A stretch of 64,000 nt of DNA, taken from Escherichia coli (GTDB lineage: Bacteria > Pseudomonadota > Gammaproteobacteria > Enterobacterales > Enterobacteriaceae). The translations under genes were made by a program, and so were the position numbers. Below the pieces are notes generated by a model. That model saw only the letters and a program-made list of their open reading frames with translations. It searched no databases and had not been told where the DNA came from. Positions 1-34,481 of this stretch are shown piece by piece (position 1 is the first letter of the stretch; each line of letters begins with the position of its first letter). The stretch lies in assembly GCA_022969815.1 (NCBI GenBank), contig GCA_022969815.1_4535.1; one strand, written 5' to 3'.

Positions 1-10
1 GCCAAAAGCT

Positions 11-14757: not shown

Positions 14758-15153
14758 ATGACTGAACGTTCAAAAATAAGTGTTGAAACTGAATACAGCG
14801 AATACCTGAACAGTTTGATACTTGTTGAAAAAGATGTAATAGGTCTGGATAACTCGTTCTTCTTTCAAATCCTGATAGGTAAGGGTGGACACCGAAAGTT
14901 ATTCTCTCGTGTGGAAGACTCTGACCTATCCGAAACTGAAATAACGGTTAAAGAATTTATTAGCTTGCAGGATAACATCCGAAAAGTTATTGACACAGCC
15001 GGAAACGCTGTTACAATAAAACTCGATATGCATTCTGTGCAATTTGTTCATTTTCCGAATGGAGAAATTGGAGTTGGAATAGGTAAAGGTAAGTACCTTT
15101 TAGAAAAAGAAAACGCAGAGCTTCTTCGTGAGTTCTGTGCAAAAACAATGTGA
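14758..15153 (+). CDS. hypothetical protein
   Basis: ORF. Confidence 0.5.
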   Translation: MTERSKISVETEYSEYLNSLILVEKDVIGLDNSFFFQILIGKGGHRKLFSRVEDSDLSETEITVKEFISLQDNIRKVIDTAGNAVTIKLDMHSVQFVHFPNGEIGVGIGKGKYLLEKENAELLREFCAKTM

Positions 15154-15170
15154 ATATAGAGGAGATAATA

Positions 15171-16108: not shown

Positions 16109-16142
16109 AAGAAAAGGGAACCTTTGCGGGTTCCCTTTTTTA
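16109..16142. terminator. bidirectional rho-independent terminator between convergent genes
   Basis: AAAAGGGAACC-TTTGCG-GGTTCCCTTTTTTATT, with A-run and T-run flanking a perfect stem. Confidence 0.7.
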
Positions 16143-18818
16143 TTAGTCGTAATATTTCAAACCTGTAATGAACTTCGATCCCCAATCCGCACTTGCGGCG
16201 GTGAACGTCAACATCCAAGTAGTAGCTGTACCAGTGAAGACCTCTCGTTGCACAGTCCCATCCGTGTGGTAAATGTCCACCCCAGTGTGTCCGTTCTTAG
16301 GAATAGTGAAGGTAGCAGCACTGGAACTGTCTCGTGCATAAGAACAAACAAATGGTGTCCCCGCCCAAACTGGATTTGTCATATCACCCATCTCAAGCTG
16401 TGGAACCCAAGCAATAAGACCTGCCGTACCATCTCCTGCGAAAGTGTCTGATCCACTTGCATTCAAAGCTATAATCTCATAGGTTATAGATGCTTGTTTG
16501 GCAACTGTCACTTTGTGTAGAATTACACGATACCAACCATTCCCCATATCGATTATGTTTGCATCTGCACCTGTAAATGTTCCAGCTACAAGATCATAAG
16601 TCCCTTCGTTAATCTCGTCTCCTGAAGTCAATTTGAGTTTCACTTTAGTGATCCCGTCTGGCTTCAAGAATACAGATGCCGCCCATTGTTTACCTGCTGT
16701 GATATCCGAAGCCGTGTTCACTGCTGATAAAATATGTTGTCCTGAAGTTGTAGAAGGTGTTAACTTGTAAGTGTTAGCGGTAGTTCCAACCGGAGAGTTG
16801 ATTGTTGATGCTGCTACTGTCAAGTTAGTCTTCAGCCACGGGGAGGCGGTTGTCAAGTTATTGTTGATAAAGATATGTGTACGACTGTTTGCTACAACAC
16901 GTCTACCCTGTGGAGTTGTACCAACATATTCTAAAGGTGCTACGGGAGCAGAACTCTCTGTAGGTACAAGGATATCTCCAGAAGTCCTCGCATAACGGTT
17001 ACTCCTGTTTACGCTTACACCTGCCGGAATAGTTTCTTGCGTCAAATCATAGTCCATCACAATCACCACAGCATTTACCGCTAAATAAGAACTATCTTCC
17101 GCAGTTACCACGCCTTGATAGGTTGCTCTACAACCGATACGACAATCCCCATCAGTAACCGCTGTAATAACGCCTGTAACGGGGTCAACTGTTGCTACCG
17201 TAGGGTCGTTAGAGAAATACTCAACAACCATGCCAGGGAGGTTCTCCGCCCCTGCTGGAGTTATTTCTGCCACCAATGTCTGCGTTGTTCCTTCATCCAT
17301 AGCTGAAAGGCTCGGAGTATACACCCCCAGTACAGAAGCATATCCCCCAGAACTGTCGGATAAGGTTGTTCCTGCTGCGTTTAATGCTGTCATCCCTGCA
17401 TCAAAACCACCTTCAGCAACAAACGTCATCAAACCAGAGGAAGATATCGTCATATAAGCTGGGGCAGATGTTGTGTAAGCTTCGTTGAAGATCTTACCTC
17501 CTGAAGGACTTACTGAATAGGTTAACTGTTTGCTCCCACCAACAATACAAATACCTAAAGAATCTGTAGTTAAACTGGTAGCCAAATCTGATCCTAAGAT
17601 CGAATCTTGTGAAATAGGTGCGAACTTGTTAGAATTCAACGTCCCATTAAACAGAGGGTTGGTCTTACCGTCAACAGTAACACCAGAGTAAAACAGATTA
17701 CCATCGTAGACAAAGAAAGTAGCATGGTAGCCTAACTGGTTAGTCACATCCAGATTCTGACTGTGGACACTTGTTAGTTTGCTCATGTCCCAATTCGGAA
17801 CACCTTCGGGTTTAAGAGGCTTCTCAACAACCAAAGGATCTGCTGCCAGAGATGCGTAACCAACACCTAAGTTTCCTGTGTAGTTTTTACCTACAGCCCA
17901 CAAACTGTTATTAATACTTAAGAAGAAAGCGTGGCGACTCATTGGGAAACTCCATGCAGAGAAACCGCCGGAGAAGTTGCTTACTTTCGTATAAGTTGTC
18001 GCAGTGTTAGAACGTGCATACAAATAATTCGTTGTTCCAGTACCGCCAGAGGTATCTCCAATTACCAATGTCTGGGAAACCGTGTTAACGTAATCTTTCA
18101 CAAAAACTGTTTCGGTAGAAGATATAGTCGCAGTAACGAAAGCTGTTGTTGTACTGTTGTTACCTGCCATACCTTTGCTTGCACCGCAAACACGTAATGC
18201 ACCGACATTGTTAAGGTAAGAACACTGGTTGTATCCTGCATCAAATGCTAAAGCAACAGAAGTTATTTGACGTGGATTTGGGATTTGGTTAGTATTACTT
18301 GCACCAAGGCTTCCTACTGTGTTTTGTCCCGAACCATAAAGGACTCCATTGTTCATGAGCCACAAGGTGTTATTATAACCCCCTTTGACCTCTTTCAGGT
18401 TGGCTAAGGTTATGATTGAGGTAATAGATGATGGGAAGCTGGTCCACGTAGTCATGCAAACATCAGCGCCGCCAGCGGCTGTAGATCCAACAAGACCTGC
18501 TAACAATCCTGCATACTGCCAACCACCACTTTGAAGCTTGATAACGAAGCAACGATCTGCTGGAAATATATCTGCTGCTGTTGTTGATGCTAAATGGAAG
18601 GTAGAGTATTTTGCTGTACGTGTGCCGTCAGCAATCTCTCCGAACACATTATCCCCTTGAGTGAATAAACGCCCATCGTTCAAGAGGAGAGCTAAACTGC
18701 TTTTAGAATTGCCAGAAGCATCTGGGTAATCTAAAGTTATTACTTTCTTGATTATTCCTGCTGGAAGTGGAACTACACCTGTGCTGGTCATAATCATCAT
18801 TACTGGAATTGGAAACAT
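16143..18818 (-). CDS. tail fibre / receptor-binding protein with Ig-like (Big_2-like) segment
   Basis: 891 aa, Thr/Ser/Gly-rich beta composition; segment TVDPVTGVITAVTDGDCRIGCRATYQGVVTAEDSSYLAVNAV resembles bacterial Ig-like domains. Confidence 0.55.
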   Translation of the reverse strand: MFPIPVMMIMTSTGVVPLPAGIIKKVITLDYPDASGNSKSSLALLLNDGRLFTQGDNVFGEIADGTRTAKYSTFHLASTTAADIFPADRCFVIKLQSGGWQYAGLLAGLVGSTAAGGADVCMTTWTSFPSSITSIITLANLKEVKGGYNNTLWLMNNGVLYGSGQNTVGSLGASNTNQIPNPRQITSVALAFDAGYNQCSYLNNVGALRVCGASKGMAGNNSTTTAFVTATISSTETVFVKDYVNTVSQTLVIGDTSGGTGTTNYLYARSNTATTYTKVSNFSGGFSAWSFPMSRHAFFLSINNSLWAVGKNYTGNLGVGYASLAADPLVVEKPLKPEGVPNWDMSKLTSVHSQNLDVTNQLGYHATFFVYDGNLFYSGVTVDGKTNPLFNGTLNSNKFAPISQDSILGSDLATSLTTDSLGICIVGGSKQLTYSVSPSGGKIFNEAYTTSAPAYMTISSSGLMTFVAEGGFDAGMTALNAAGTTLSDSSGGYASVLGVYTPSLSAMDEGTTQTLVAEITPAGAENLPGMVVEYFSNDPTVATVDPVTGVITAVTDGDCRIGCRATYQGVVTAEDSSYLAVNAVVIVMDYDLTQETIPAGVSVNRSNRYARTSGDILVPTESSAPVAPLEYVGTTPQGRRVVANSRTHIFINNNLTTASPWLKTNLTVAASTINSPVGTTANTYKLTPSTTSGQHILSAVNTASDITAGKQWAASVFLKPDGITKVKLKLTSGDEINEGTYDLVAGTFTGADANIIDMGNGWYRVILHKVTVAKQASITYEIIALNASGSDTFAGDGTAGLIAWVPQLEMGDMTNPVWAGTPFVCSYARDSSSAATFTIPKNGHTGVDIYHTDGTVQREVFTGTATTWMLTFTAASADWGSKFITGLKYYD

Positions 18819-18835
18819 TTTTATCCTCCATAAAA

Positions 18836-18859
18836 GAAAAGCCCCTTGCGGGGCTTCTA
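18836..18859 (-). terminator. terminator hairpin (minus strand)
   Basis: minus-strand AGCCCCGCAAGGGGCT followed by TTTTCTTTT. Confidence 0.55.
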
Positions 18860-20905
18860 TTATCGTGTTACAACAACCATGTCCACGATATTACCCACAC
18901 CTGGATACGTCAACTGTAGAATTGTCACAGCACTTGCTGCTGTTGCTACATCCGTATCGTTCAGTGCTCCGTAAGACGCATCCAGCGTCACGGTGTGTCC
19001 CGTTGTATCTTGCAGAAGGTAAATCATTGCAGAGAAAGCTTTCGGTTTTGTAGCCCCTGTAACTCCAGGCCATGCTCCGATCGTCAATGCGTCTGTAACG
19101 TTGACCACGTACATATTGGTGGCTCCAGAAGGAGTCCAAGAAGTACCTGAACTTGCTACCGTAGTAGTTTCCAGTTCCAGATAACCCGCTGTTACCTTCG
19201 TAGGCGTGATTGCTTCTGTAGGATCTCCCGCAGAGATTTCAATCCAATCACCATCAGAACGCCCGTAGGTTAAACCATCTTCAGGAGCTTCAGGAATGCT
19301 TGGAAGTGTACCAACTTGCGTCCAAACAGTAGCAGCGGTTTTCTTAAAGACAGCCCCTGTTGCAGTGTTGAAAGCGTAGTCGTTAATAACACCTTCGGCA
19401 TTGGTTGGGTTGGTTGCAGCTACAAACCATTGCGCTCCATCCTTACCATCTGTTCCATCAGTCCCTGGTGTACCGTTAGTTCCGTCTGTTCCGTTAGTAC
19501 CTGCTGGACCTGGATCACCCTTATCTCCCTTGTCACCTTTGTCCCCTTTTATACTACCCATGTCAACAAAAGAGGCGGTGTTCGTATCTTTGTCATAAGT
19601 GTAGATATAGAGGTTGCTGGTGTCTTCTGTCAGATAAGCATCGCCGTAGCTGTTGTACGTTGGCAGCGCAGAACCGTTTGGTACATGACCTTTGGCAGTG
19701 ATAGATGTTCCACCAAGGCTTCCTACGTTCATCCAGTCTGTAGCGCCTTCTACCCAAACATACAAGTTGTTGTTGATAATATATGCATCACCAACTTCCC
19801 CTGTTGCTGGGAGTTCAGATTCATTAGAGAGAACGTCTAAGATTTCCAAGCCAGAACCTGTTGCACCAACTGGACCTTGTGGGCCTACTTCACCCTGATC
19901 GCCTTGTTGACCCTGAATCCCTTGGTCGCCTTTCTCCCCTTTGATCGCTGCGATAAAATCTACTTCTGTCCCTGTGTTACCGATATCTAACCAAGATTGG
20001 TAAGCTGACTTCCCTTCGTCACCGTCTGTCCCATCAAGACCATCAACACCTGCTTCACCTTGCGGACCTTGTGGGCCTACAATGTTACCCATGTTAACCC
20101 AGTCTTCACCATTAGAGACATAAAGATATCCGCCAATAGAGTAAGCTTGGCTTACGTTATTTGGGTTAGCTGCTGGTAGGTTAGCAGTAGAGTCAAGATC
20201 CCCACGGTAATCAAAACCGTTCGCATTAAGACCTGCCGCCCCTTGTGGACCTTGAGGACCAACATCTCCTCGATCTCCTTTCAGGGATTCCAGGTAGTCG
20301 TAAATTGTACCAGTATTACCTATTGACAACCATACTTGGTACGCTGACTTCCCTTCTGGACCCAGAGAAGAAATCATTTTCCAAGTTGCGCCGTCCCAAG
20401 CGTAAATTGCGTCCCCGACAATCCAACCATCTCCTAAAGCATTACCTGTTGTAGGTAATTGGTTGATGTTGTTCAAAGATCCTTTGATATTTAATTGTGC
20501 GCCAGTGTCACCTTTAAGAGACGCTAACCACTGTTGTTCTGTGCCTACGAAACCATTATCCAGAGCAATCTGGTAGGCTGATTTCCCAGCTTCAGGGATT
20601 TGAGAAGAGATGTTATTGATCTCTTGCTGCATTATTGCAAAACGGGCATTAATTACTGCGATATCATCAGCAGTGCCTACGCTCTCCCATCCAGTGGAGT
20701 TAATGCCGCCTGTGCTTGCCGGAGTAGAGTTCTCAGGAACAACTTTCGGAAAAGCACCTTTCCATTTATAATAGTTACCGTCATCATCTAAAAGCAGAAC
20801 TTCACGGGCATTACGTAAAGTAAATCCCGCTGCAAAGCTTCGACGTTTACGGTACGTAGCTTCGACCATATCTGCAATCGAGCTATTCGGTCTTGTTAAA
20901 AGCAT
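18860..20905 (-). CDS. tail fibre protein with collagen-like Gly-X-Y repeats
   Basis: Several G-X-Y runs (GPQGPQGEAGVDGLDGTDGDEG, GDQGIQGQQGDQGEVGPQGPVGATG, GDKGDKGDKGDPGPAGTNGTDGTNGTPGTDGTDGKDG) interspersed with repeated GKSAYQxWL..GNTGT...LKG modules. Confidence 0.65.
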   Translation of the reverse strand: MLLTRPNSSIADMVEATYRKRRSFAAGFTLRNAREVLLLDDDGNYYKWKGAFPKVVPENSTPASTGGINSTGWESVGTADDIAVINARFAIMQQEINNISSQIPEAGKSAYQIALDNGFVGTEQQWLASLKGDTGAQLNIKGSLNNINQLPTTGNALGDGWIVGDAIYAWDGATWKMISSLGPEGKSAYQVWLSIGNTGTIYDYLESLKGDRGDVGPQGPQGAAGLNANGFDYRGDLDSTANLPAANPNNVSQAYSIGGYLYVSNGEDWVNMGNIVGPQGPQGEAGVDGLDGTDGDEGKSAYQSWLDIGNTGTEVDFIAAIKGEKGDQGIQGQQGDQGEVGPQGPVGATGSGLEILDVLSNESELPATGEVGDAYIINNNLYVWVEGATDWMNVGSLGGTSITAKGHVPNGSALPTYNSYGDAYLTEDTSNLYIYTYDKDTNTASFVDMGSIKGDKGDKGDKGDPGPAGTNGTDGTNGTPGTDGTDGKDGAQWFVAATNPTNAEGVINDYAFNTATGAVFKKTAATVWTQVGTLPSIPEAPEDGLTYGRSDGDWIEISAGDPTEAITPTKVTAGYLELETTTVASSGTSWTPSGATNMYVVNVTDALTIGAWPGVTGATKPKAFSAMIYLLQDTTGHTVTLDASYGALNDTDVATAASAVTILQLTYPGVGNIVDMVVVTR

Positions 20906-20944
20906 TTATTTACTCCTGATTAATCATTCGTTTATCGTTGGGAG

Positions 20945-20970
20945 TTAAAAGGGGGACAAGCCCCCTTTCA
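20945..20970 (-). terminator. terminator hairpin (minus strand)
   Basis: minus-strand AAGGGGGCTTGTCCCCCTTTT. Confidence 0.55.
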
Positions 20971-20971
20971 C

Positions 20972-23900
20972 TTATGTCGTCGGAGTATCAATCACCGGAG
21001 TAGGACGAATTACCGCAGTGTTACCAACCGCAACGTTGCTTGCGCTATTAGGAATAGTTGTGATACGTACTCCTGCTGCTGTCGCTGTTTGGATAGGATC
21101 TGCAATATCCACCTTCACTGGGTTGGTCCAAGTATCGTTATCCTGATAAGGGGCACGAGTGATTACTGTGTCCAAATCAGATCCGCCTGGACCCGCACCT
21201 GGGATACGGATACGTGTACCTGCTGACAGTGGGTAATGATATAACCAAGAAGCATTTGTCGCTGTACCGTTAGGTGTCAGGTTCTGCACAATCGATTTAT
21301 CACCAACATTTGTCGCTCGGATACCGAAGGCTGGAATGTCTGGGATGTACGCACCACTTGTAGTTACAAGGAAGAACGTGTTATCTGCTTTAACGATAAT
21401 ATCTCCTTTATCGAACTCTTTCCCTGTTGGGAAGTGCATCCCGTCAATGTTACGACCTGGGATTGCTTCGATGTAGTAAGATTTACCAGTAGAGCCTACC
21501 AGAGCACCAATACCACCTGCGATGTTCGTATACATATTCGCTTCAACGTTACAGTTGATACGATGTATATCCGAGTAACGGCAACGGCTCCATTGAGGAC
21601 GACCAGTTACCATTGTGTTTCCATTTGGATAGCAGTTTACGTTCACCATCTCCAGTACGGACTTCTCTCTACGGAAGAAACCATCGTAGAAAGTACCTGG
21701 ACCAGATTCAGGCTGACCCACACACTCGAAAGAGTTACAAGTGATGTTAGCCATTGACAACCAAGAAGCGATACCAAACAATTGCAGAGCGTTACAACGG
21801 ATGTTATCGAAGCTAACGCGGTTCTCAAAGCCTGGACCCGCTGATACACCTGCGAAGACACGTCCTGTAGCTGTATGTACGTTACGTACCGAGTAATTGA
21901 AGCAAGGGTTTGATGGGCGACCCTGTGCAGGAACAACAGGTTTACCATCCTCGCCTAAAACTGCGTTCGTACCCCATTCCAGATAGATCATACGGATTGC
22001 ACTTGGCAACGTACTGTCGTCTGTAATAGGCTCACCATAAACACCATCGATCGTGAAATCTTTACAGCCGTACATTACAACAGCGCCTGTTGCAAGCCCT
22101 GTACCAACAGAAACTGTCTGGTCAGGATCACCGTGGATGTTCTGGATAGAAATGTTACGACCAACTTCTACGTGAACAATCTGGCGGCAACGTTTCGCAA
22201 ATACGTTACGGATTGTAATATTCTTACAATACTGCGTATCTGGAATGTCATAACCGTATGGGCCTTTACCTGCTACACCGATACCGATACCCCAGTTGGA
22301 AAGAGGAATTGGTGCGTTCGTTCCGTCGATGTGAGACAAGTAGATGTTCTCAATAACACAACCTTCATCGTAGTGCTTGTTGATTACGTTCAGTTCGATT
22401 GCATCGCCCTGCATATCCATAAACGTCAAGTTACGGAAGACACCGCGACTAACTGGTTCACCAGTACCTTGTTGAAGGATACCGTAAAGTCCGTTTTTAA
22501 ACGTACAGTTGTCAATCTCAAAAGTACCTGGAATTGGGTTGCCCTGGAATACCAAGCTACCAACCTGTCCTGGACGAGGTGCACCATCCCACAAGCAGTC
22601 ATAGATACGCACATCGCCACCCCAGTACATTACACGGGAGTTGCGGAAAGTTGTACCTTCCACTTTACAGTTTTGTAGACGGTAGTCACGTTGTCCACGG
22701 AAGACACCACCAAGGAGGGTGATCCCAGTAATATCAAAAGAACTTGTAGTGAAGGTCATATCACAACCATAAGCATTCAGGATCTTGCTCTTGGTTGCTG
22801 CTGTTGCCACGAGAGCCGCTTGGAAAGCTGCTTCTGGAGTAGCGTACACTGCACTGTTTGCAAACTCGGACAGGTAAACAACATCAAACAGATCATCAAA
22901 CTTACCACCATGTGGAGTTAACAGACCTTCTGTGTTTGTCAGTACCCAAGCATTTGGACCTACGCCACCAGAGGAGGCAAGGGTGTCACTCGCAGAGAGA
23001 GTTTTTGGCAAAGTGCCAGCCCAACGGTAACGACCTGCACCCATACCAATAGTCTGGTGTTTAAGGGTCAGGGTAATTTCATTACCGAAACTGGTAGGCA
23101 GATGTACATATTGCTGACGTTCAACTGCTAATGCTGCCAAGTCAACAGTACCAGAAGAGTGGGTAAGAACACCAGTATCTGATAAGCTAACAAATGTCCC
23201 AGTTAAACCAGGTGGCAGGGTGTAAGCTATTTGGTTAGTGGCATCATACAGGGCTTTCAGACCTACTAAAGCTTGTCCTGATTTTGCGTAAGCCACTTCA
23301 TAATTCAGGAAACCATATTTACGAGCAATTGTCTGAAGAGGAACAGCGTTCATATCTTCGGTCAATGTTTCAGTAGTTGTTTCCAGGTTAGAAATTCGGT
23401 TTTCGAGGTTAGGATCGTTTTCTGCGCTTGCTACAATCTTGCCGATGTAAGCAAACAACTGATTAGGTAATCCAGTTGCAGGATCATGTCCAAGTGGTTC
23501 GGACAAGATGATCTGACTGTTCTCAATACGGAATGCATCACCCACGATCTGGATAACGCCGTTGATAGTCACAATAGCACTATCGAACACATAAGGAGGA
23601 CTGATTACTTTTTCATAACCTGTTGCAGAGGTATACAGCCAAGGAATAACTTCACTTGGCAGTTGTTCAGTCTGCATTCCCCACAGCACCCAGTTATTGT
23701 CCCCGACTGGAGTCCCTTGCATTGGGATAGGGTTCACCAGTGTTGCTGCTGGAGCGTAGTAGTATCCACTCAAGATTCCGTTCTGATAGAAACGGAGTTG
23801 GTTGAATACTGTTTCATTGGTCCCTTGCGCCCAGGCAATAGGACTTTTGAAGTAAAAGTTATCAACCAAAGCCTTACGTAAAGTCGGAATCAATCCTGAT

Positions 23901-24022
23901 TCCGTATCAATACTTTCTGTTGCGCTTCCGTTGATGATATCATGTATCTGGTTAGAAGAAAAGATTACCAGATCTACGCCCTGTTCCAAGGACGTAGCGG
24001 GATATGTTGGGAATAGTGTCAT
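20972..24022 (-). CDS. tailspike-like protein, probable right-handed beta-helix (depolymerase candidate)
   Basis: 1016 aa; long Asn/Gly/Val-rich repetitive central region typical of pectate-lyase-like beta-helices. Confidence 0.5.
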   Translation of the reverse strand: MTLFPTYPATSLEQGVDLVIFSSNQIHDIINGSATESIDTESGLIPTLRKALVDNFYFKSPIAWAQGTNETVFNQLRFYQNGILSGYYYAPAATLVNPIPMQGTPVGDNNWVLWGMQTEQLPSEVIPWLYTSATGYEKVISPPYVFDSAIVTINGVIQIVGDAFRIENSQIILSEPLGHDPATGLPNQLFAYIGKIVASAENDPNLENRISNLETTTETLTEDMNAVPLQTIARKYGFLNYEVAYAKSGQALVGLKALYDATNQIAYTLPPGLTGTFVSLSDTGVLTHSSGTVDLAALAVERQQYVHLPTSFGNEITLTLKHQTIGMGAGRYRWAGTLPKTLSASDTLASSGGVGPNAWVLTNTEGLLTPHGGKFDDLFDVVYLSEFANSAVYATPEAAFQAALVATAATKSKILNAYGCDMTFTTSSFDITGITLLGGVFRGQRDYRLQNCKVEGTTFRNSRVMYWGGDVRIYDCLWDGAPRPGQVGSLVFQGNPIPGTFEIDNCTFKNGLYGILQQGTGEPVSRGVFRNLTFMDMQGDAIELNVINKHYDEGCVIENIYLSHIDGTNAPIPLSNWGIGIGVAGKGPYGYDIPDTQYCKNITIRNVFAKRCRQIVHVEVGRNISIQNIHGDPDQTVSVGTGLATGAVVMYGCKDFTIDGVYGEPITDDSTLPSAIRMIYLEWGTNAVLGEDGKPVVPAQGRPSNPCFNYSVRNVHTATGRVFAGVSAGPGFENRVSFDNIRCNALQLFGIASWLSMANITCNSFECVGQPESGPGTFYDGFFRREKSVLEMVNVNCYPNGNTMVTGRPQWSRCRYSDIHRINCNVEANMYTNIAGGIGALVGSTGKSYYIEAIPGRNIDGMHFPTGKEFDKGDIIVKADNTFFLVTTSGAYIPDIPAFGIRATNVGDKSIVQNLTPNGTATNASWLYHYPLSAGTRIRIPGAGPGGSDLDTVITRAPYQDNDTWTNPVKVDIADPIQTATAAGVRITTIPNSASNVAVGNTAVIRPTPVIDTPTT

Positions 24023-24028
24023 TTATAA

Positions 24029-24364
24029 TTAACCCTTACTCTGTGTACGTTTAGTAATATCCTCTAACATCATCTGGATCGTTGCATTCTTGAGGTCCAT
24101 GATTTTTTCAATCTTCTGCTCAAGAGTCGTATTGTTCGCCAGTAATGTAGAGTTAATCTGATTCAGCATTTGAGTAAGTTCAGCTTTCGTTGCGTAAGTG
24201 GATTCGACGAAAACAAGTTTCTTTTCCAACTCACGGGCCTTGTCTTCGACCTTCTCCAAATCAACACCAAACTTATCTATTTTTTGTTTAAACAGAAACC
24301 AGATTAAACCGATTAGAGGGATGATTGCATCCTTAGCAAGACCCCAGACTTCTTGAAATTCCAT
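24029..24364 (-). CDS. hypothetical membrane-anchored coiled-coil protein
   Basis: N-terminal hydrophobic segment IIPLIGLIWFLF then coiled-coil-like sequence. Confidence 0.45.
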   Translation of the reverse strand: MEFQEVWGLAKDAIIPLIGLIWFLFKQKIDKFGVDLEKVEDKARELEKKLVFVESTYATKAELTQMLNQINSTLLANNTTLEQKIEKIMDLKNATIQMMLEDITKRTQSKG

Positions 24365-24375
24365 ATTTGCATCCC

Positions 24376-24921
24376 TTATTTTGTTGGTAGGGTAGGCCAG
24401 TTAACCTCGTAAGGATATCCCTCTTGAAGAGGCACACGGTTCAATTCCACAACATAAACTTGGAGTTGCTTCAGTTCCGCAAGTTCTTCGGGTGTCGCTA
24501 TCTCAAGATCTTTTGCATATTGCAAAGGCGTGATAAGGGCAACGGCTGCTTCTTGCTTATTCTTTATTTCAGCAGAAACCTTGACAATCATTTGTTCACG
24601 ACTGTACTCTTTATCTTTCAGTGTAAGAGTTTCTAAGTCTAAAACCTTGTCACGGATATCTTCGAAACTTGTAATCTCAAAATCAACTTGTGCAAGAGAC
24701 ATGTTTTCGGGACACAACAGAGTAGGATCTGTGTTCCAAAAAACTATACGGTTCTGATCGTCAAACACAACTTTCATTTTGTCGTTTTTTAACAGACCAT
24801 CGCGTAATTCATACCAATCAAAACCCTGGTCGCAAAGTAGGAACAAAATGTTCTCTACTTCTACGAGTTCTCTTAGGGCGGGATCTTCTGGGATATACTT
24901 CTTAAAATTAGTGTAGAGCAT
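24376..24921 (-). CDS. hypothetical protein (possible tail fibre assembly factor)
   Basis: ORF between fibre genes. Confidence 0.4.
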   Translation of the reverse strand: MLYTNFKKYIPEDPALRELVEVENILFLLCDQGFDWYELRDGLLKNDKMKVVFDDQNRIVFWNTDPTLLCPENMSLAQVDFEITSFEDIRDKVLDLETLTLKDKEYSREQMIVKVSAEIKNKQEAAVALITPLQYAKDLEIATPEELAELKQLQVYVVELNRVPLQEGYPYEVNWPTLPTK

Positions 24922-25983
24922 TTAGCCTCCAATATCGTACCAGTTTCCGTTCACGTTTCGCTGGAGACGTTTGAAGTAAACACCACCAATGTTATCCGCA
25001 GAACTACGGCCTGTTTCCTGGACAATAATACCAGAAAGAACATAGCCGGAAGAACAAACATATGTCCAAGACACTTCGTTACCTGGTGGGTAATATACGC
25101 CTTGGCTGGTATAACGTATGTCACGAACAAAAGTACCATTCGCATAGTTATAGTTGTTACTGATCTGGTTTTGCAAGTTATTGTTCACGTTGTCAATACG
25201 TGAGTTCAAGTTGTTGTTAACGTTGTTCAGGTTGTTTTGAACAGAGTTAATATTCGTTTGCAAGGTGTTCTGTAAAGAGCTTAAACGTGAGTTCAAGTAA
25301 TCTAAACGAACCAGAGCATTACCGTTCCCAGTATCTTGTCCACTATTAGATCGTGGATTATCAATCAGGACATAACCACCATCATACAAACGTACTGCAC
25401 AGGATACGTTACCATTGGTAGGGTTCCTGCGATACATGTAAAGGTGTCCTCCGTTATTGTATTCGGAAGAGATTTCACCGTTGGTTTGACCTGCGAAGTT
25501 TTTAAAGAATATAGTAGCAGGATCTGAAGTAGATGTACCATTTACATAAATATCTCCACCATAGATAGCACCGCCGCCGTCACGTTTAACTAACACGTTA
25601 GGGGTTACTGTAGTGCTTGTTGCATCTGTGATGTTTGAAGATAAGTGGTTGTGGCTGTTATCTACAACTTGGATAGAAAGCGTTACTGCTGCATTTCCGT
25701 TCCAGGTTACTTCACCTGTTGCATCCCCTGCCATTGTTATTTTAGTACCAACCAGAGGAAGATATGTATTTGGTAATGTTGGAAGAAACTCGTCAACCAG
25801 ATAACGAATCCATAGCCCGTTATTGTTGAGTACCCAGTTCATTTCTTCACAAGTCATGATCTGACCATAATCCATACCCACGGTACGAATAATTTCTTTA
25901 GGTCGAATCTTGTTTAAGTTTTGTGTTCCTGGGAGGGTAACTGTTTCTACAGCCCAATCAGGATAGTATATTGGCTTCGCCAT
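24922..25983 (-). CDS. tail fibre protein (short) with Asn-rich coiled-coil repeats
   Basis: NNLNNVNNNLNSRIDNVNNNLQNQ heptad-like repeats. Confidence 0.5.
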   Translation of the reverse strand: MAKPIYYPDWAVETVTLPGTQNLNKIRPKEIIRTVGMDYGQIMTCEEMNWVLNNNGLWIRYLVDEFLPTLPNTYLPLVGTKITMAGDATGEVTWNGNAAVTLSIQVVDNSHNHLSSNITDATSTTVTPNVLVKRDGGGAIYGGDIYVNGTSTSDPATIFFKNFAGQTNGEISSEYNNGGHLYMYRRNPTNGNVSCAVRLYDGGYVLIDNPRSNSGQDTGNGNALVRLDYLNSRLSSLQNTLQTNINSVQNNLNNVNNNLNSRIDNVNNNLQNQISNNYNYANGTFVRDIRYTSQGVYYPPGNEVSWTYVCSSGYVLSGIIVQETGRSSADNIGGVYFKRLQRNVNGNWYDIGG

Positions 25984-25992
25984 TGGAACTCC

Positions 25993-26622
25993 TTAATCGA
26001 TTTGTTTCAGAAGCATACACATGCGTCCAGTTTCATCTCCTGTAGATTCCAAGTACAAGGAACCCAAACCACCAATACCATGAGGATCTTTGGTAGCGTA
26101 ATAAGAGGTGAATCCAAAAGCTGATCCGGCTTTAGCTCCCAGTCGATAGTTGCTTATAATTGGGAACACACTTAAAAGTTGCTCAAGAGCTTGATCAGAC
26201 TGAAGACACAAGTTATAAAAGAACACATCAAAGGATTTATTCAATCCCACATATGTGTTAATTGTATCTCGTTTTGTACCTGTGAAACGGGCGAAGATAT
26301 CAATAATGTCCCCACGAGTCCCCGAAGAGGCAACACGATAAGCCCTGATTTTTAAAATTGTGCGGTACTCTTCATCATCAGAACCATTTCGTTCAATACC
26401 CATCTCTTCACCAAGGAGATCAAGATAATCTCCCGTGGCTGTAGATATTAAACGGTGTTTAGCAAGATAGATCATTGCCTGATCTATCTTTTGCTTTTCA
26501 CTTGATACGATGTAGAGGAGCTTGACAATGTTAGGGGAAGATTTAAAATCTTCAATCAACAGATCTTTAACGTCTTCATTGATATTCTCCCAAGTCGTTA
26601 CATGGTCAACACTCACTGCCAT
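25993..26622 (-). CDS. baseplate-associated protein
   Basis: Position immediately downstream of the baseplate J-like gene. Confidence 0.4.
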   Translation of the reverse strand: MAVSVDHVTTWENINEDVKDLLIEDFKSSPNIVKLLYIVSSEKQKIDQAMIYLAKHRLISTATGDYLDLLGEEMGIERNGSDDEEYRTILKIRAYRVASSGTRGDIIDIFARFTGTKRDTINTYVGLNKSFDVFFYNLCLQSDQALEQLLSVFPIISNYRLGAKAGSAFGFTSYYATKDPHGIGGLGSLYLESTGDETGRMCMLLKQID

Positions 26623-26624
26623 TT

Positions 26625-28112
26625 TTAGACTCCATACTCGTAGGAAATGTTATCAAGGTCGAAAGACGGGACAATATTGTAGGCAGGAATAATGTTCCCT
26701 TCTGTATATTTACTGTCGTCTTCATTATTAAGTTTAACATAAACACGGAGAGAAGTCAAGCGCCCAAAGGCAAGTGCTGCATAAATAACACCTTTAATCT
26801 GGTCGTTTGTCACAGAAGAACCCAATTCGAAATAGGCTTGCAGGTTATCCAATGCTTTAACAATGTTTTCTTTCTCTGTTCCACTTAACGTTGTACCGTT
26901 GATTGTCTGGTATACAAGTTTCAAAGAGTACGTTGCAGTAGCACCAGGAGAGAAGCGGATAATCTCTTGTCCACCGTCTTCCGTCATGACAGTAATGTTA
27001 GTTGTGCCATACGTCAAGGTATTGATTGGTTTAGTGTCGTAAATCACTTTAGCAACTTCTTCGGCACTCCCACCATACACGATTGTCTGGAAACTCATTG
27101 CAGGTGCATGTTCCTGATCGTGGATTGTCGGGTTGTCGTAAATCTTAACCTTAGTTACGCCATCAGTTTGCAACAAGGCTTTAACGATAGCTGCGCGTGT
27201 ACCTGCGTTTGCTTCATCAAGGTTATCGTTGAAACGTGAGCGGAACTCTGCGTCTGTCTCTACATCTCGTCCTGAAGAGAAAGCATAGAAGTTACCAGAA
27301 TCAAGGTAGCCTGTGAAGGTTGAAGAGATTCCAGAAATGGATTCCACACCTACCGGATTGTACCCTGCTTCCGCCCCTACCACTGGAATTTCACTCCACT
27401 TCATCCCAACAGGGACAGAAGCGTAGAATTTTATTGGTGTTACCAAACCAACAGGTTCTGCATCTCCCGCTGCTGCGAAGCCAACGTAAACGTTACTTGC
27501 GTCTGCGTGGATTAAACCTTGATCCGTAGTGGAGAGGTTGTCTCGAATAAAGTTTGCAAGATCTGTAATGAATGTCGAAGAAGCTGGAGAGAGTACTCGA
27601 CTGTTCAGACCACCATCATTTGCACTTTGTGCGTAGAAAGTTATGTTAGCCATACCTGTAGCTGTTGCATTCGCACGCGAGATTTGATATGCTGCGATCT
27701 TAGCATTCAACATAGTAGGTGCACTGACATAATAGTTCATGTCGTTGTCTGCATTAAAATACGTATCTGTACCAAGTTCAAAAGTCCAAGGGGCTTTGTT
27801 GTTGCTTTTCACATAAGCAAAACCTGAACCAGGTGCAGCGGCTGAACGGTAGAAACCACGTTTGGAGAAGATCTCATCAAGGTAGATACCTTCGGCACCA
27901 TCCAGTGTCTGGGTATTATAAACCCCTTGCATCCCTTCCCATAATGTGTAGTCGGTATAAGCAATAATACGGAACAACTGCCCGAAAACAGTATCCTCCG
28001 AAGTCGCTGCATCAGCACCAAAGGTGTTCTTAAGTGCAGTCATGTAGTTGTTAAGTACATCGTCGAATGTCGGGATTACAAATCCCGCATCGGTTAAACC
28101 ATATTCATCCAT
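26625..28112 (-). CDS. baseplate J-like protein (gp47/gpJ family), tentative
   Basis: Size, N-terminal composition and position in the baseplate block. Confidence 0.5.
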   Translation of the reverse strand: MDEYGLTDAGFVIPTFDDVLNNYMTALKNTFGADAATSEDTVFGQLFRIIAYTDYTLWEGMQGVYNTQTLDGAEGIYLDEIFSKRGFYRSAAAPGSGFAYVKSNNKAPWTFELGTDTYFNADNDMNYYVSAPTMLNAKIAAYQISRANATATGMANITFYAQSANDGGLNSRVLSPASSTFITDLANFIRDNLSTTDQGLIHADASNVYVGFAAAGDAEPVGLVTPIKFYASVPVGMKWSEIPVVGAEAGYNPVGVESISGISSTFTGYLDSGNFYAFSSGRDVETDAEFRSRFNDNLDEANAGTRAAIVKALLQTDGVTKVKIYDNPTIHDQEHAPAMSFQTIVYGGSAEEVAKVIYDTKPINTLTYGTTNITVMTEDGGQEIIRFSPGATATYSLKLVYQTINGTTLSGTEKENIVKALDNLQAYFELGSSVTNDQIKGVIYAALAFGRLTSLRVYVKLNNEDDSKYTEGNIIPAYNIVPSFDLDNISYEYGV

Positions 28113-28369: not shown

Positions 28370-28370
28370 A

Positions 28371-31202
28371 TTATGGCCTCAAGTCAATACCGATGTTTGG
28401 TAAGCTGGATTGTGCATTGCTTCGACGATACAAAGCGTACAGACCAAAGCCACGGAGGATTTCTCCAGAGTGGAAACCAAACGCCGGAGCGTTATCATTT
28501 GCAGCATCAGGGTTAGAACTCCAAGAACCGTTCATTACATGGTTGGGACCAGCAACAACATAATTCTCTTGCAGGAGGTCAAAGCAACGATCCGCTACGA
28601 TGGAAATATTAGGGATCTGGTTTTCCAGATTAGCCAACCCGATATAACAGCAACCCGCCAGGAACAATGCAGACATGTGGGATGTAAAGTCCCATGTAGG
28701 AGCCGAGACTGTGCCATCAGGCATGAAGATTGTAGGAGTACGCCCTTCGTTGTTGTCTTGGAACCACTTCAGATAGTTCACCCAGTTCTTAGTCACTGTC
28801 ATGAGTTTGGCTGGAATAGGTTCACCACGAGCTTGCAGTTCATGCAAACAACGAGCACCACAATAAAATGCACGAGCTTCATATCCATCCCAAGCTTTTT
28901 CATTCCAGTGTTTCATTGTAAACTGGTTCTTTTCCCCGTACTTCAATGCATCCCAACGATCCCATACAAAGGCTTGAGCCATTGGTCCAGGCATAACAGG
29001 ATCAAATGTTTCATAGAACCACATTTGAGAGTCATAAAGGAAGTTGATACTTTCTGTTAATCGTGTATACTCAATATTCTCACCAGCAAAGCAATACAAT
29101 ACTGGGTACTGGTATCCAGGGTAGGGCAGTCCACGCCAACCATCAAAGAGCGCCGTATTAGGATCGCTAATGTTGGAGAATGGAATAATACCTGGTGTGT
29201 AATGGAGGCTATTCAGTTTGTAGTCAACAATTACGCAGTCGCCAAGTTTCGCGCTGTATGGATTTTGTGCTTGCAAAGAGATGCGGAAATACATTGTGTA
29301 ATCATCACCATTTGCAGAAGAATACCGAGTAGGTACTTCATTCACACAATACCAATCAAACTGTGCGTTAACACCATTAACAGGATCAGTGTCCAATCCG
29401 ATGTTGATTTGGTCGAGAGCACTAATGTCGATAGTCGCAGGTTTAGGATCTGTTTCTGGGTGATTCGGTTGCCAAGAGCTTAACTGGAAACTTGCCGCAG
29501 TTATTGTCTTAGTTACCCAAGTCCCACCAGTTTTCTCCAACATAGCCCACCATCTCCATCCGTCTTTATCCGTCAATGTGATATTGAAATCATCATTGTA
29601 AGTACGGTAAGATAAAGATTGGAGTGGTGCTACTTCTTCATCCAGTAACCAGAAACCAATAGAGATTCCACCGTCAGTATCCATAACCGCAGTGCAAATC
29701 TGATCGCTAATGTTTGAAGGTAAAATATTCGTTGTATACTGGAAGTTTACCACAGTATTGTCACCCCAGTCAATAACATTTCGCGGATCAGCAACAATAT
29801 ACTGTCCACCACCTGGAGGTGTTGAACGAATGAAGCTGGATAGCGGAATATCCATCGACTGGATAGAGGTTGTCGCTGTTGGGATACCACAACGATAATC
29901 TACCAGGTCATCATTCGTTTTTGTCTTACTCAAAGACAATTCTGGACGGAAGATAACAGGGACACCCGCATCATCCACACCTGCAAACTCTACACGCAAT
30001 TTGGAATTATTATCCACACGGAACCAAATAGCTTGTTGCTCCATTGTCGTCTGTGCAGCCACTTTCTGACGAATGGTAATGTACCCTTGAGCATCACGAC
30101 CAAAATCAGCCGTAGATCCTGATGGATAGTAATAGTCATAACTAATACCATCTGTGAACGGAATACTTGCCAATGTGGATTTACGGAAGAACTTGTCGAA
30201 ACGGTCAATATCAGAGTAATCAATACAAACCATCAAAGAAGACTTCCATGCCAGACGATACTTTTCTTCTCCGGTGATCTTGTACATCATGTAACAAGCA
30301 TCGCACCACCAAGTTTCAGCATCGGAAGCATTATCTGCAAACGAAATATCAATCGGAACGTTTACTGGGCGGTTATGCCACATTTCGTTACGTCCGATCA
30401 GATAACCACCTTTGTCTACAGGATTACATGTTGCATAGTTGAACTTGTAGTTGCCAGTGACTGTCTTGTTTTTCAGTTGAACCGTACCGTACTCGGAAAG
30501 AGAGTGTCCAGTAGAAAGAATGTTTCCGTCCCAGTCTACTTTACGTCCCAGACGATCGATAATCCAATCTACATCCCACTGACTACCCTTAACGTCCCAA
30601 TCTGTTGATCCGTCTGCCTTGGTGCCATATACTGTAGCGTTTACAGAGTTCCATCCCAGATTACCGTCGAAAGCAAACCAAGCTTTATCCAAGTATTCTC
30701 CCCAATGTGGAGCACCTTTAGGAATCACTGTGCGTCCGTTGGTCCAAGTCATCACGCTTCCTTTAAAGCCGCCGTGAGTTGGATACCCATCGTCTGTCAG
30801 AGGATAGTGAGCCAAACGAGGCTCCTTTCCGTTGATGATCCAGTTAGGACGATATTTTGCCGGAGGATTAGGGATTGGCTGACCACCAAAGAAGTGGTCA
30901 ATGTAAGCTTGCCAGTAAGTTTTAGCCAAGTCAAGATACTTAACATCGCCAGTACCCAAATAAGCATAAGCACACCCCAGAACTAAAACAGATTGACCTT
31001 CTGTGGTCGCATCTCCGTTGGGCTGTCCTTCCTGTCCAGTCCAGTTGATGAAGTGTCGGTTGTTTGCAAGAACATGCTCTGGGTTGATAAGGTAATGCTG
31101 TACCGTTGGGTCGATTGTCAAACCTGTGCTTCTTTCCATGAACTGGACATGACCATCAATCAGTTGGAAAGCATTATCAATATTGTGCTTAATTTGAGAC
31201 AT
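28371..31202 (-). CDS. large baseplate/tail-associated protein, possible C-terminal glycosidase-like domain
   Basis: 943 aa; Trp/Tyr/Asp-rich, consistent with a carbohydrate-active fold; position in baseplate block. Confidence 0.45.
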   Translation of the reverse strand: MSQIKHNIDNAFQLIDGHVQFMERSTGLTIDPTVQHYLINPEHVLANNRHFINWTGQEGQPNGDATTEGQSVLVLGCAYAYLGTGDVKYLDLAKTYWQAYIDHFFGGQPIPNPPAKYRPNWIINGKEPRLAHYPLTDDGYPTHGGFKGSVMTWTNGRTVIPKGAPHWGEYLDKAWFAFDGNLGWNSVNATVYGTKADGSTDWDVKGSQWDVDWIIDRLGRKVDWDGNILSTGHSLSEYGTVQLKNKTVTGNYKFNYATCNPVDKGGYLIGRNEMWHNRPVNVPIDISFADNASDAETWWCDACYMMYKITGEEKYRLAWKSSLMVCIDYSDIDRFDKFFRKSTLASIPFTDGISYDYYYPSGSTADFGRDAQGYITIRQKVAAQTTMEQQAIWFRVDNNSKLRVEFAGVDDAGVPVIFRPELSLSKTKTNDDLVDYRCGIPTATTSIQSMDIPLSSFIRSTPPGGGQYIVADPRNVIDWGDNTVVNFQYTTNILPSNISDQICTAVMDTDGGISIGFWLLDEEVAPLQSLSYRTYNDDFNITLTDKDGWRWWAMLEKTGGTWVTKTITAASFQLSSWQPNHPETDPKPATIDISALDQINIGLDTDPVNGVNAQFDWYCVNEVPTRYSSANGDDYTMYFRISLQAQNPYSAKLGDCVIVDYKLNSLHYTPGIIPFSNISDPNTALFDGWRGLPYPGYQYPVLYCFAGENIEYTRLTESINFLYDSQMWFYETFDPVMPGPMAQAFVWDRWDALKYGEKNQFTMKHWNEKAWDGYEARAFYCGARCLHELQARGEPIPAKLMTVTKNWVNYLKWFQDNNEGRTPTIFMPDGTVSAPTWDFTSHMSALFLAGCCYIGLANLENQIPNISIVADRCFDLLQENYVVAGPNHVMNGSWSSNPDAANDNAPAFGFHSGEILRGFGLYALYRRSNAQSSLPNIGIDLRP

Positions 31203-31675
31203 TAGATCACTCCCGCCATTACCATACTTCCAATCCAGGAAGCACCGTTGTCTAAACTGATAAATTCAAAAGTATCGATCGCACCTTGACGATAACTCAA
31301 AACAGGTGCACGCCCAAAACTCCACTTAACCGATGCTGGCCATACCACTTTATTCGCCCCACTACCCTGACGCAAAGCCAAACTAAAGTTTAAAACTGTC
31401 GCTGTGGTAACAGGAATGTTTGTAAAGCTGATCGTACAAGAAGCGGAAGAGAGAGTCGCATAAAAATACTCTGCCGAACCCACATCTAAAGCCAATGTAC
31501 TGGTGGCAGTGCCACGGGTACTTAAACGATTACGAGTAACCCCAGCACCATTCAAAAGAACGCGCAGGGACGTTTTCTTAGTTATCCCTGCCTGATCCGT
31601 TACAAAGAAATCTGTATCTGAGACAGACGTGGTTTGAACCAAATCTGTAACTTTGATAGTTGTTAAATCTGCCAT
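31202..31675 (-). CDS. hypothetical baseplate/tail protein
   Basis: ORF in baseplate block. Confidence 0.45.
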   Translation of the reverse strand: MADLTTIKVTDLVQTTSVSDTDFFVTDQAGITKKTSLRVLLNGAGVTRNRLSTRGTATSTLALDVGSAEYFYATLSSASCTISFTNIPVTTATVLNFSLALRQGSGANKVVWPASVKWSFGRAPVLSYRQGAIDTFEFISLDNGASWIGSMVMAGVI

Positions 31676-31676
31676 T

Positions 31677-32297: not shown

Positions 32298-32299
32298 TA

Positions 32300-34047: not shown

Positions 34048-34065
34048 ACAATCTCCCCTTAACTA

Positions 34066-34479: not shown

Positions 34480-34481
34480 GA

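Follow-up and report, generated by a model that had tools for sequence, protein, structure and literature searches.

We analysed a 64,000-nucleotide (nt) stretch of DNA deposited under Escherichia coli (assembly GCA_022969815.1, contig GCA_022969815.1_4535.1), referred to here as the window, and focused on a row of minus-strand phage genes for tail fibre and tailspike proteins at positions 16143-25983. All six open reading frames (ORFs) of this region were confirmed, with exactly the limits given by a first-pass annotation that a model had made from the sequence. Over the whole 10 kb, the region is 97.2 % identical at the nt level to the Escherichia phages phiWec179, phiWec181 and phiWec186, and its six proteins share 97-100 % identity with their phiWec179 counterparts. 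The identity to phAPEC8 and other Phapecoctavirus genomes is ~78 % at the nt level along the full length. BLASTP mapping revealed gene-for-gene synteny with phAPEC8 gp086-091 and phi92 gp147-151, and in comparisons with phAPEC8 gp086-094 and phi92 gp144-151 the genes for the wedge proteins, short fibre, chaperone, small protein, spike and collagen-like fibre follow one another in colinear order. By this identity and synteny, the phage is a phi92/phAPEC8-like myovirus of the Stephanstirmvirinae and belongs to the proposed genus "Wecvirus". The phiWec179 group was described as this proposed Stephanstirmvirinae genus in 2025, and the names TfpL (943 amino acids, aa), TfpM1 (891 aa), TfpM2 (681 aa) and TfpS1 (353 aa) come from the same paper (PMC12695924).

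The first-pass annotation had read the region as four different receptor-binding protein genes in a row. The multi-fibre module is real, was correctly described and is an already-known hallmark of the family, whose several co-expressed fibres and spikes have been termed a "multivalent adsorption apparatus" and a "nanosized Swiss army knife" since 2012. In that year, Schwarzer reportedly described the multivalent adsorption apparatus of phi92 as comprising gp140-gp151. The receptor-binding designation stands for two of the proteins, the 353 aa fibre and the 1016 aa spike, which are homologous to proteins that have been placed in the virion or assayed; it is likely for the 681 aa protein and not settled for the 891 aa protein. 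The proposed limits of the module had to be revised, as the adsorption module reaches beyond 16143-25983, to about 31675. The positions of all features are listed in Table 1.

Table 1. Genes, protein domains and terminator-like sites of the adsorption region and its upstream neighbours, with positions in the window
Feature	Residues	Window position	Strand	Basis or remark
ORF, 891 aa		16143-18818	-	published name TfpM1; phAPEC8 gp086 orthologue
ORF, 681 aa		18860-20905	-	published name TfpM2; orthologue of phi92 gp151 and phAPEC8 gp087
ORF, 1016 aa		20972-24022	-	colanidase-type tailspike; phAPEC8 gp088 orthologue, mosaic relative of phi92 gp150
ORF, 111 aa		24029-24364	-	small conserved protein; phi92 gp149 counterpart
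ORF, 181 aa		24376-24921	-	predicted tail-fibre assembly chaperone; phi92 gp148 counterpart
ORF, 353 aa		24922-25983	-	short tail fibre, published name TfpS1; phi92 gp147 orthologue
353 aa: conserved wedge-attachment part and shaft	1-276			
353 aa: Asn-rich coiled segment	~226-275			
353 aa: exchangeable tip	285-353	24922-25129		homologous to C-terminus of phiTE short tail fibre (PDB 9cuy_c)
1016 aa: baseplate anchor domain	1-120	23663..24022	-	phiTE long tail fibre homology
1016 aa: candidate T4 gp10-like (XD-type) branching domain	124-226	23345..23653	-	TSP4 alignment
1016 aa: TD1-TD2 tandem	229-381	22880..23338	-	PDB matches 4oj5, 4qnl, 6nw9, 5w6h, E 1e-25 to 2e-29
1016 aa: right-handed beta-helix catalytic domain, colanidase/WcaM type	410-1000	21023..22795	-	6E0V, AF2, Foldseek
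681 aa: TSP1/gp66-type N-terminal adaptor (TD2-like)	11-89	20639..20875	-	PF18668
681 aa: four collagen Gly-X-Y runs	210-492	19430..20278	-	Gly-X-Y count, Pfam Collagen
681 aa: foldon-like trimerisation motif SIPEAPEDGLTYGRSDGDWIEI	535-558	19232..19303	-	phmmer
681 aa: distal domain, likely ligand-binding tip	556-681	18860..19240	-	rV5-type fibre identity
891 aa: seven-bladed RCC1-like beta-propeller	20-390	17649..18761	-	Pfam, AF2, Foldseek
891 aa: tandem Ig-like (Big_2) domains	413-587	17058..17582	-	Pfam, AF2
891 aa: exchangeable C-terminal beta-sandwich cassette, "GTA head spike fiber" type	590-891	16143..17051	-	NF048003, PDB 6tb9
Terminator-like hairpin and U-tract after tailspike gene		20952..20965	-	-14.5 kcal/mol, z -3.0
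Terminator-like hairpin and U-tract after 681 aa gene		18837..18858	-	-14.9 kcal/mol, GGGGCTTTTCTTTTATGGAGGATAAAAATG
Strong hairpin with A-run upstream and T-run downstream, after 891 aa gene		16112..16139	-	-16 kcal/mol, z -4.4
Baseplate wedge genes (209 aa DUF2612, 495 aa Baseplate_J)		25993..28112	-	86 % / 81 % identity to phi92 gp146 / gp145; Pfam
Further fibre candidates: 943 aa TfpL (gp141 orthologue), 157 aa (gp140 orthologue)		28371..31675	-	74 % / 80 % identity to phi92

The 353 aa protein was assigned to the tail fiber family phrog_4465 (E 1e-99) and shares 75 % identity with phi92 gp147 over residues 1-276, while the tips of the two proteins differ. It had been called a short fibre with asparagine (Asn) repeats, and its composition agrees with this: 14 % of all residues are Asn, and 18 of them fall within the 40 residues 241-280. 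In the 2026 cryo-electron microscopy (cryo-EM) map of phi92, gp147 forms fibre III, fitted below and attached to the wedge protein gp145 (PMC13450770), and by this orthology an attachment of the 353 aa protein to the baseplate wedge is supported. For tip residues 285-351 we found 50-52 % identity with Peduovirus H proteins and 48 % with a Mu-like prophage fibre, and the short tail fibre with the homologous C-terminus belongs to phiTE, a flagellotropic phage independent of lipopolysaccharide (LPS). The phiTE-like tip was considered as a cause of the flhD dependence of the phiWec179 group (see below) and rejected, because the tip of phiWec190 is 98-100 % identical and yet this phage is not flhD-dependent. 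Related tips are also carried by the tail fibres of P2-like and Mu-like phages, and we judged a flagellar role of the tip unlikely.

The gene immediately downstream of the short-fibre gene (junction 24921/24922) encodes the 181 aa protein, which matched Pfam PF02413 Caudo_TAP (41.3 bits, cut-off 22.1) and phrog_136 (E 8e-35). By family and gene position, it is a tail-fibre assembly chaperone of the lambda gpK, Mu GpU and P2 gpG type for the adjacent short fibre. The protein is only 24 % identical to phi92 gp148 while the fibre shafts share 75 %, which suggests that the chaperone varies together with the fibre tip. The BASEL study of 2021 treated such a pair of fibre and chaperone as homologues of Mu GpS/GpU that target the LPS core. 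We infer that the 353 aa fibre may bind the LPS outer core; this is consistent with the genetics of relatives, in which the effect is not assigned to this particular protein.

Regarding the 111 aa protein, we found membership in phrog_15210 (E 3e-66), 80 % identity to phi92 gp149 and 80-87 % conservation across genera. An N-terminal hydrophobic helix is followed by a coiled coil. PHROGs and the RefSeq relatives phi92 gp149 and phAPEC8 gp089 label it as a lipoprotein; we rejected this label, as the protein contains no Cys at all and cannot be lipidated.

The 1016 aa tailspike shares 85 % identity with phAPEC8 gp088 and belongs to phrog_6117, "colanic acid degradation" (E 2e-266). By its alignments, it is a mosaic of four parts, which are distributed across phage families in a three-part mosaic pattern. 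The comparison with phi92 gp150 displays this structure well, with 73 % identity over residues 1-199, only 33 % over residues 451-1001, and no match to gp150 in pairwise BLASTP for the TD1-TD2 stretch (residues 229-381). The beta-helix of the spike had been named beforehand as a point on which the first-pass annotation could fail, and it held. Residues 423-999 match the crystal structure of the phi92 gp150 colanidase (PDB 6E0V, E 3e-80), and the AlphaFold2 (AF2) model, computed with 17 homologues, is all-beta over residues 410-990. A Foldseek search with this model returned 6E0V as the best hit (E 2.8e-36, target template modelling (TM) score 0.65), followed by the tailspikes of CBA120, HK620, Sf6 and Det7 and by PL6 lyases. 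WcaM, encoded in the colanic acid gene cluster, is a further homologue of the catalytic domain (E 7e-27), which also occurs in the podophages J8-65 and GAP227 as their colanidase. Colanic acid-degrading activity has been reported for phi92 gp150, and by this homology the 1016 aa spike is presumed to be a colanidase with the same substrate.

Residues 11-114 of the spike match residues 14-120 of the long tail fibre of phiTE (PDB 9cuy_g, E 2e-18), the N-terminal region of which was built in situ in contact with wedge 2A and the sheath initiator (PDB 9CUY/9MJN). This anchor homology is the best available evidence for the spike on the baseplate, a position which it supports. The first ~200 residues, anchor included, are 50-76 % identical in family members with unrelated catalytic domains, among which we found Pectate_lyase_3, Beta_helix, SGNH hydrolase and Peptidase_S74. 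Further downstream, the TD1-TD2 tandem is of the kind known from CBA120 TSP1 and TSP3 (TSP4 was matched as well) and from G7C gp63.1; it shares 49 % identity with the N-terminus of Kuttervirus TSP1 and includes a PF18668 match at residues 299-361. Residues 126-360 align to residues 265-477 of Kuttervirus TSP4 (E 4e-28), with residues 126-226 in the position of XD3, upstream of TD1. The stretch 124-226 is a candidate gp10-like docking domain of the XD type.

The 681 aa protein is 58.5 % identical to phi92 gp151 and 80 % identical to phAPEC8 gp087 over its full length and was assigned to phrog_15437, tail fiber (E 0). Its N-terminal adaptor was recognised by PF18668 (E 5e-20, 71.8 bits, cut-off 25), shares 48 % identity with residues 102-166 (TD2) of Kuttervirus TSP3 and resembles the N-termini of K1F and Kayfunavirus spikes. 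The adaptor is followed by three globular modules of the form GKSAYQ...W..SLKG starting at residues 107, 185 and 298, which are common to phrog_3904 (E 1e-85), a family with a member detected in W70 virions by mass spectrometry. The several collagen repeats noted at first were verified as four runs of 6, 8, 10 and 13 triplets (37 in total) at residues 210-227, 277-300, 323-352 and 454-492. They begin after the second GKSAYQ module, and the first three alternate with the modules. Pfam Collagen PF01391 was matched with 53.4 bits (E 2e-14, cut-off 27.2), and the longest run of 13 triplets compares with a maximum of 9 and a mean of 3 in 5000 residue shuffles.

Approximately 45 residues past the last and longest collagen run lies the motif SIPEAPEDGLTYGRSDGDWIEI, for which phmmer found matches to T4 fibritin and foldon fusion proteins (E 0.003-0.008). 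The motif is kept in phAPEC8 gp087, and an exact IPEAP match was not found in phi92 gp151. Residues 535-558 are foldon-like and represent a candidate trimerisation element. The distal domain shares 44-50 % identity with the C-terminus of the lateral tail fibres of rV5-type phages (CarlMeissner, Av-05) and matches positions 751-868 of phrog_4549, a protein of which is abundant in W70 virions; a Pfam search of the C-terminal 118 residues yielded nothing useful. On these grounds, the 681 aa protein is likely a receptor-binding fibre. As Certrevirus fibres contain collagen domains, the collagen-like fibre was also considered as the cause of flhD dependence, and it was rejected, as the two Wecvirus species have fibres with 95 % identity.

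The situation was less clear for the 891 aa protein, which shares 84.5 % identity with phAPEC8 gp086 and belongs to phrog_11922, tail protein (E 0). Its phi92 counterpart, gp152, is only a 202 aa relic of the Ig part, and it is matched by residues 413-587 of the 891 aa protein (62 % identity) and by no other part. The protein had been introduced as an immunoglobulin (Ig)-like-domain fibre. The Ig domain was recovered, with Pfam Big_2 at residues 506-561 (40.6 bits, cut-off 22.8), but the predicted shape is not that of a fibre: the AF2 model, computed with 33 homologues (mean predicted local distance difference test (pLDDT) 76), consists of three modules, a propeller, an Ig pair and a beta-sandwich. 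The propeller was modelled with pLDDT of about 90 and was recognised by Pfam RCC1_2 (23.9 bits, cut-off 22) and RCC1 (22.8 bits, cut-off 21.7), by phrog_4219 (E 3e-33) and by Foldseek, with UVR8, RCC1 and HERC2 as hits (target TM-scores 0.65-0.71). RCC1-type proteins of phrog_4219 are virion components in phage W70. The two tandem Ig-like domains were modelled at residues 410-582 with pLDDT of about 88. Within the C-terminal cassette, residues 643-814 matched NCBIfam NF048003, "GTA head spike fiber" (74 bits, cut-off 36), and the cassette matched PDB 6tb9, Rcc01080 of the RcGTA capsid (E 5e-14), a domain that binds capsular polysaccharide experimentally in RcGTA. We did not recognise any virion anchor domain in the 891 aa protein, either by Pfam or in the AF2 model.

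Alignment of 42 homologues of the 891 aa protein revealed a sharp breakpoint in identity at about residue 590. In some homologues, an identity of 96-100 % before the breakpoint drops to about 20 % behind it; others have in common only the Ig and C-terminal modules, and some versions of ~570 aa lack the cassette. The alternative C-terminal cassettes of relatives carry DUF285. Against phiWec190 the cassette is 12-32 % identical while the rest of the block is at least 95 % identical, so that the cassette is the sole strongly divergent part. The comparison with phAPEC8 gives the reverse picture, with 92-100 % identity in the cassette and only 62-90 % in the N-terminal two-thirds, which points to a recent transfer of the cassette between genera. 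The 891 aa protein behaves as a candidate for a host-facing, glycan-binding accessory adhesin; head, neck and tail are all conceivable as its location. Comparing distal domains with related phages, as had been proposed at the outset, brought up exchangeable parts in the spike (its catalytic domain), the short fibre (its tip) and the 891 aa protein (its cassette).

The first-pass annotation had further described the four genes as separated by terminators and small putative assembly factors. Behind each of the 1016, 681 and 891 aa genes, the gap holds a G+C-rich hairpin with a U-tract, with folding energies from -14.5 to -16 kcal/mol and z-scores from -2.6 to -4.4, and the 181 aa protein is the Caudo_TAP chaperone; small genes, however, are confined to the stretch that separates the 353 aa gene from the 1016 aa gene. 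With 14 terminator-like sites versus 10.9 expected from shuffles, the region as a whole is not above expectation, and the support for the terminators therefore comes from their exact placement after the stop codons and from their stability. Between the hairpin after the tailspike gene and the following start codon there are ~43 nt, with an AGGAG ribosome-binding site ahead of the start. In the next gap (18819-18858), the U-tract of the hairpin runs directly into the 891 aa gene's GGAGG Shine-Dalgarno sequence and ATG. These two inner gaps are too short to hold a promoter, so the 681 and 891 aa genes would be expressed by read-through. The scan for sigma-70-like promoters in the region gave 25 sites versus 28.5 in shuffles and is uninformative on late promoters. 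The hairpin after the 891 aa gene looks like a bidirectional terminator that closes the late operon against the convergent plus-strand gene for a 309 aa protein (15150-16079); in phAPEC8, a terminator is annotated at the equivalent place. We also observed that this hairpin coincides with a sign change of the GC skew near 16 kb.

Taken together, we consider it highly probable that the region is the promoter-distal half of a late tail and adsorption operon, the four different surface-glycan-directed virion proteins of which work one after another on a single envelope instead of each serving a host of its own. In the first step, the spike would act as a homotrimeric beta-helix fixed at the baseplate periphery through its N-terminal anchor and cut exopolysaccharide of the colanic acid type, which would let the particle reach the outer membrane. 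In the second step, the collagen-like fibre, trimerised by its collagen runs and the foldon-like motif, would contact a further glycan with its distal domain. By analogy with CBA120 and G7C, this fibre probably hangs from the spike or from a neighbouring fibre, with its adaptor docked on the gp10-like domain of the spike. The 891 aa protein would then present its exchangeable carbohydrate-binding cassette as a low-affinity accessory adhesin and tune the host range between close relatives. Finally, the 353 aa fibre, folded by the Caudo_TAP chaperone and pointing down from the wedge protein gp145, would bind the LPS outer core as the terminal receptor, and its movement would trigger the rearrangement of the baseplate and contraction. 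If the three hairpins are leaky terminators, as their spacing suggests, expression would step down from the spike to the fibre and further to the accessory protein.

Several observations weigh against this model. A tail location of the 681 and 891 aa proteins is putative. The 2026 map of phi92 shows only three fibre types, and AlphaFold3 models of gp150 and gp151 fit the density of fibre II poorly (PMC13450770). The docking of the fibre on the spike meets further difficulties on both sides. Docking in Ackermannviridae takes place between the TD1 of one spike and the XD3 of a second one, whereas the 681 aa protein's N-terminal domain aligns to TD2 rather than to TD1. Spike residues 124-226 were assigned to the XD type from an alignment that takes in TD1-TD2 as well; separate PDB matches of this region were weak, if concordant (E 0.001-0.04), and comprised the podophage tail adaptor 7y22_e (E 0.0012), residues 18-70 of CBA120 TSP2 and a K1 depolymerase. 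Pfam found no match in the spike sub-fragments 100-240 and 1-200, and the AF2 monomer failed to build residues 1-225 (pLDDT about 30). Moreover, the specificity for colanic acid was carried over from gp150 at only 33 % identity, and the read-through across the terminators was deduced from sequence spacing.

The first-pass annotation had suggested multi-receptor or multi-host adsorption, and these two parts fared differently. The use of multiple receptors is plausible and is the accepted view for the family. A multi-host arsenal, in which every one of the four proteins would have its own primary receptor and thereby open up its own set of hosts, appears unlikely to us, even though phi92/phAPEC8-type phages have unusually broad host ranges that are attributed to their several fibres and spikes, and although cassette exchange affects the distal domains of both the spike and the 891 aa protein. 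The nearest isolates, the phiWec179 group with its near-identical proteins, infect only about 13 % of the tested strains, and their infectivity is lost on mutants in waaT (an LPS outer-core sugar gene) and waaG, with flhD needed as well (PMC12695924). Blocks by single mutations in waaT or flhD are not expected of independent entry routes. All Vequintavirinae-like phages tested in the BASEL study showed the same dependencies on K-12, a host on which they were judged "effectively monovalent". Colanic acid is a conserved structure, as is the LPS core, and neither is host-variable; the window also has no counterpart of the endosialidase branch through which phi92 gains entry to capsulated hosts. 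Given the narrow strain range, the blocks by single envelope mutations and this missing branch, layered use of the four proteins on one host fits better.

Regarding the position of the 891 aa protein, and possibly also of the 681 aa protein, the alternative is a decoration fibre of the head or neck, similar to T4 Hoc, the RcGTA head spike fibre or Pa223 gp52, which would bind glycans weakly and raise the encounter rate. In favour of it, the 891 aa protein has a cassette that scores above the cut-off of the GTA head spike fiber model and matches Rcc01080, the protein lacks a recognisable anchor domain, and its gene closes the operon, downstream of two terminators. Ig-like domains of the Big_2 type are characteristic of decoration proteins (Fraser 2006, as quoted in a paper citing it), and the authors of the phi92 cryo-EM study noted that gp151 resembles a head spike protein (PMC13450770). 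Still, we regard the head or neck location as improbable. The lectin domain of RcGTA is anchored by its own N-terminal peptide (residues 2-10 of Rcc01080 anchor it to the capsid spike base), whereas in the 891 aa protein the domain is C-terminal, after the propeller and the two Ig domains, and no N-terminal anchoring peptide was found. RCC1-like propellers are fused to T7-type tail-fibre N-termini in Pseudomonas phages, and both genes lie in the tail module and not in the head module. The PF18668 adaptor of the 681 aa protein otherwise occurs on tailspikes docked to tailspikes, and its C-terminal domain is that of rV5-type lateral fibres. It is highly improbable that the 891 aa protein is non-structural, either as an RCC1-like "DNA condensation" factor or as an effector, intracellular or secreted, whose gene merely happens to lie last in the tail operon. 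"DNA condensation protein" is a frequent annotation for phage proteins with an RCC1 propeller, and the 891 aa protein is known here from sequence and model. Against such a role, purified W70 virions contained RCC1-type proteins of phrog_4219, and two Ig-like domains together with an exchangeable lectin-like cassette behind a sharp recombination breakpoint typify surface-exposed proteins that face the host.

Sequential action on one envelope, which we prefer, can be extended to a more specific and rather doubtful assignment. The spike and the collagen-like fibre might form a branched unit in the style of CBA120 and G7C, mounted on the wedge and sheath initiator in the manner of the phiTE long tail fibre and equivalent to the phi92-type fibre II. 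The 891 aa protein would then be a further virion adhesin, and its lectin cassette would determine whether the host range of a "Wecvirus" species is flhD-dependent or, as in the other of the two species, yhaH-dependent.

Upstream of the region, the window contains the two baseplate wedge genes, orthologous to phi92 gp146 and gp145, which have a wedge role in phi92 (PMC13450770); by homology, these proteins form the docking base for the fibres. Further upstream lie additional fibre candidates. The 943 aa TfpL had no Pfam, NCBIfam or PDB sequence match, and between 28112 and 31675 there is one large gene (943 aa) where phi92 and phAPEC8 have three (gp141, gp142 and the endosialidase-type spike gp143). 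The gene at 34482-35216 corresponds to the published "TfpS2 (235 aa) short tail fiber protein 2" and is 72 % identical to phi92 gp135, which is the tail tube initiator in the phi92 cryo-EM study (PMC13450770). The "tail fiber" label, inherited from PHROG/Pharokka, is probably wrong.

In the course of the searches we recovered also several suspicious host labels. The "Pseudomonas phage PsgM04F" (OR584014.1), recorded from coffee leaves with Pseudomonas coronafaciens as host, is 96.5 % identical to positions 20900-35300 of the window over 14.4 kb. Matches that carry the names Acinetobacter phage ABPW7 and Campylobacter phage A150 likewise represent Stephanstirmvirinae genomes of the coliphage type. 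The host labels of all three look doubtful.

The discovery value of the locus is small, as the apparatus has been in the literature since 2012 and the proteins were named in 2025. The details bear on which gene makes which fibre, a question called unresolved by both the BASEL study of 2021 and the phi92 cryo-EM study of 2026 (PMC13450770). The present analysis adds the domain anatomy of TfpM1, a spike anchor with in situ support, a candidate docking pair of spike and fibre, and the TfpM1 breakpoint at residue ~590. The cassette past this residue could be swapped for host-range engineering.

Among known systems, the closest are phiWec179, phiWec181 and phiWec186, which carry the same genes with 97-100 % protein identity, have a published tail fibre set of TfpL, TfpM1, TfpM2 and TfpS1-3, and differ from the window by ~3 % at the nt level. 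In the paper describing them, the 1016 aa spike is not among the listed tail fibre proteins and the domains of TfpM1 were not analysed (PMC12695924). The full-length colinear orthologues gp086-gp091 of phAPEC8 share 76-88 % identity and come from a different genus, Phapecoctavirus (~78 % at the nt level). The window conserves the phi92 gene order gp145-146-147-148-149-150-151, with 81-86 % identity in the wedge proteins, 75 % in the shaft of fibre III, 80 % in gp149 and 58 % in gp151. It differs from phi92 in the absence of equivalents of gp142 and the endosialidase gp143, in the extra TD1-TD2 tandem of the spike with a catalytic domain only 33 % identical to that of gp150, in a short-fibre tip and chaperone of a different type, and in a full 891 aa protein where phi92 has the 202 aa gp152 plus gp153.

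Outside the subfamily, the resemblance is modular. The spike shares the TD1-TD2 tandem with CBA120 TSP1-4 and G7C gp63.1/gp66 and has a candidate gp10-like domain at the XD3 position, and the 681 aa fibre shares the PF18668 adaptor. However, the spike anchor is of the phiTE/rV5 type and not of the CBA120 TSP4 type, and the partner would be a collagen-like fibre with a TD2-like domain, known here from its sequence, instead of a beta-helix spike with a TD1-like domain. Similarities to phiTE (Certrevirus; PDB 9CUY/9MJN) comprise the spike anchor, residues 11-114 of which correspond to long-tail-fibre residues 14-120, and the tip of the 353 aa fibre, which corresponds to the C-terminus of the short tail fibre. 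In phiTE, the long tail fibre continues as a long beta-helical fibre and not as a colanidase, and the phage is flagellotropic and LPS-independent. The lectin-like beta-sandwich of RcGTA Rcc01080 (PDB 6TB9; NF048003) has a homologue in the 891 aa protein, but here the domain is the C-terminal module of a propeller-Ig protein encoded in a tail operon, and the N-terminal anchoring peptide of Rcc01080 has no counterpart. Finally, the short fibre resembles the fibre and chaperone pairs Mu GpS/GpU and P2 gpH/gpG in its adjacency to a Caudo_TAP gene, its homologous tip and the co-variation of tip and chaperone, whereas its N-terminal attachment part and shaft are specific to Stephanstirmvirinae and Vequintavirinae.

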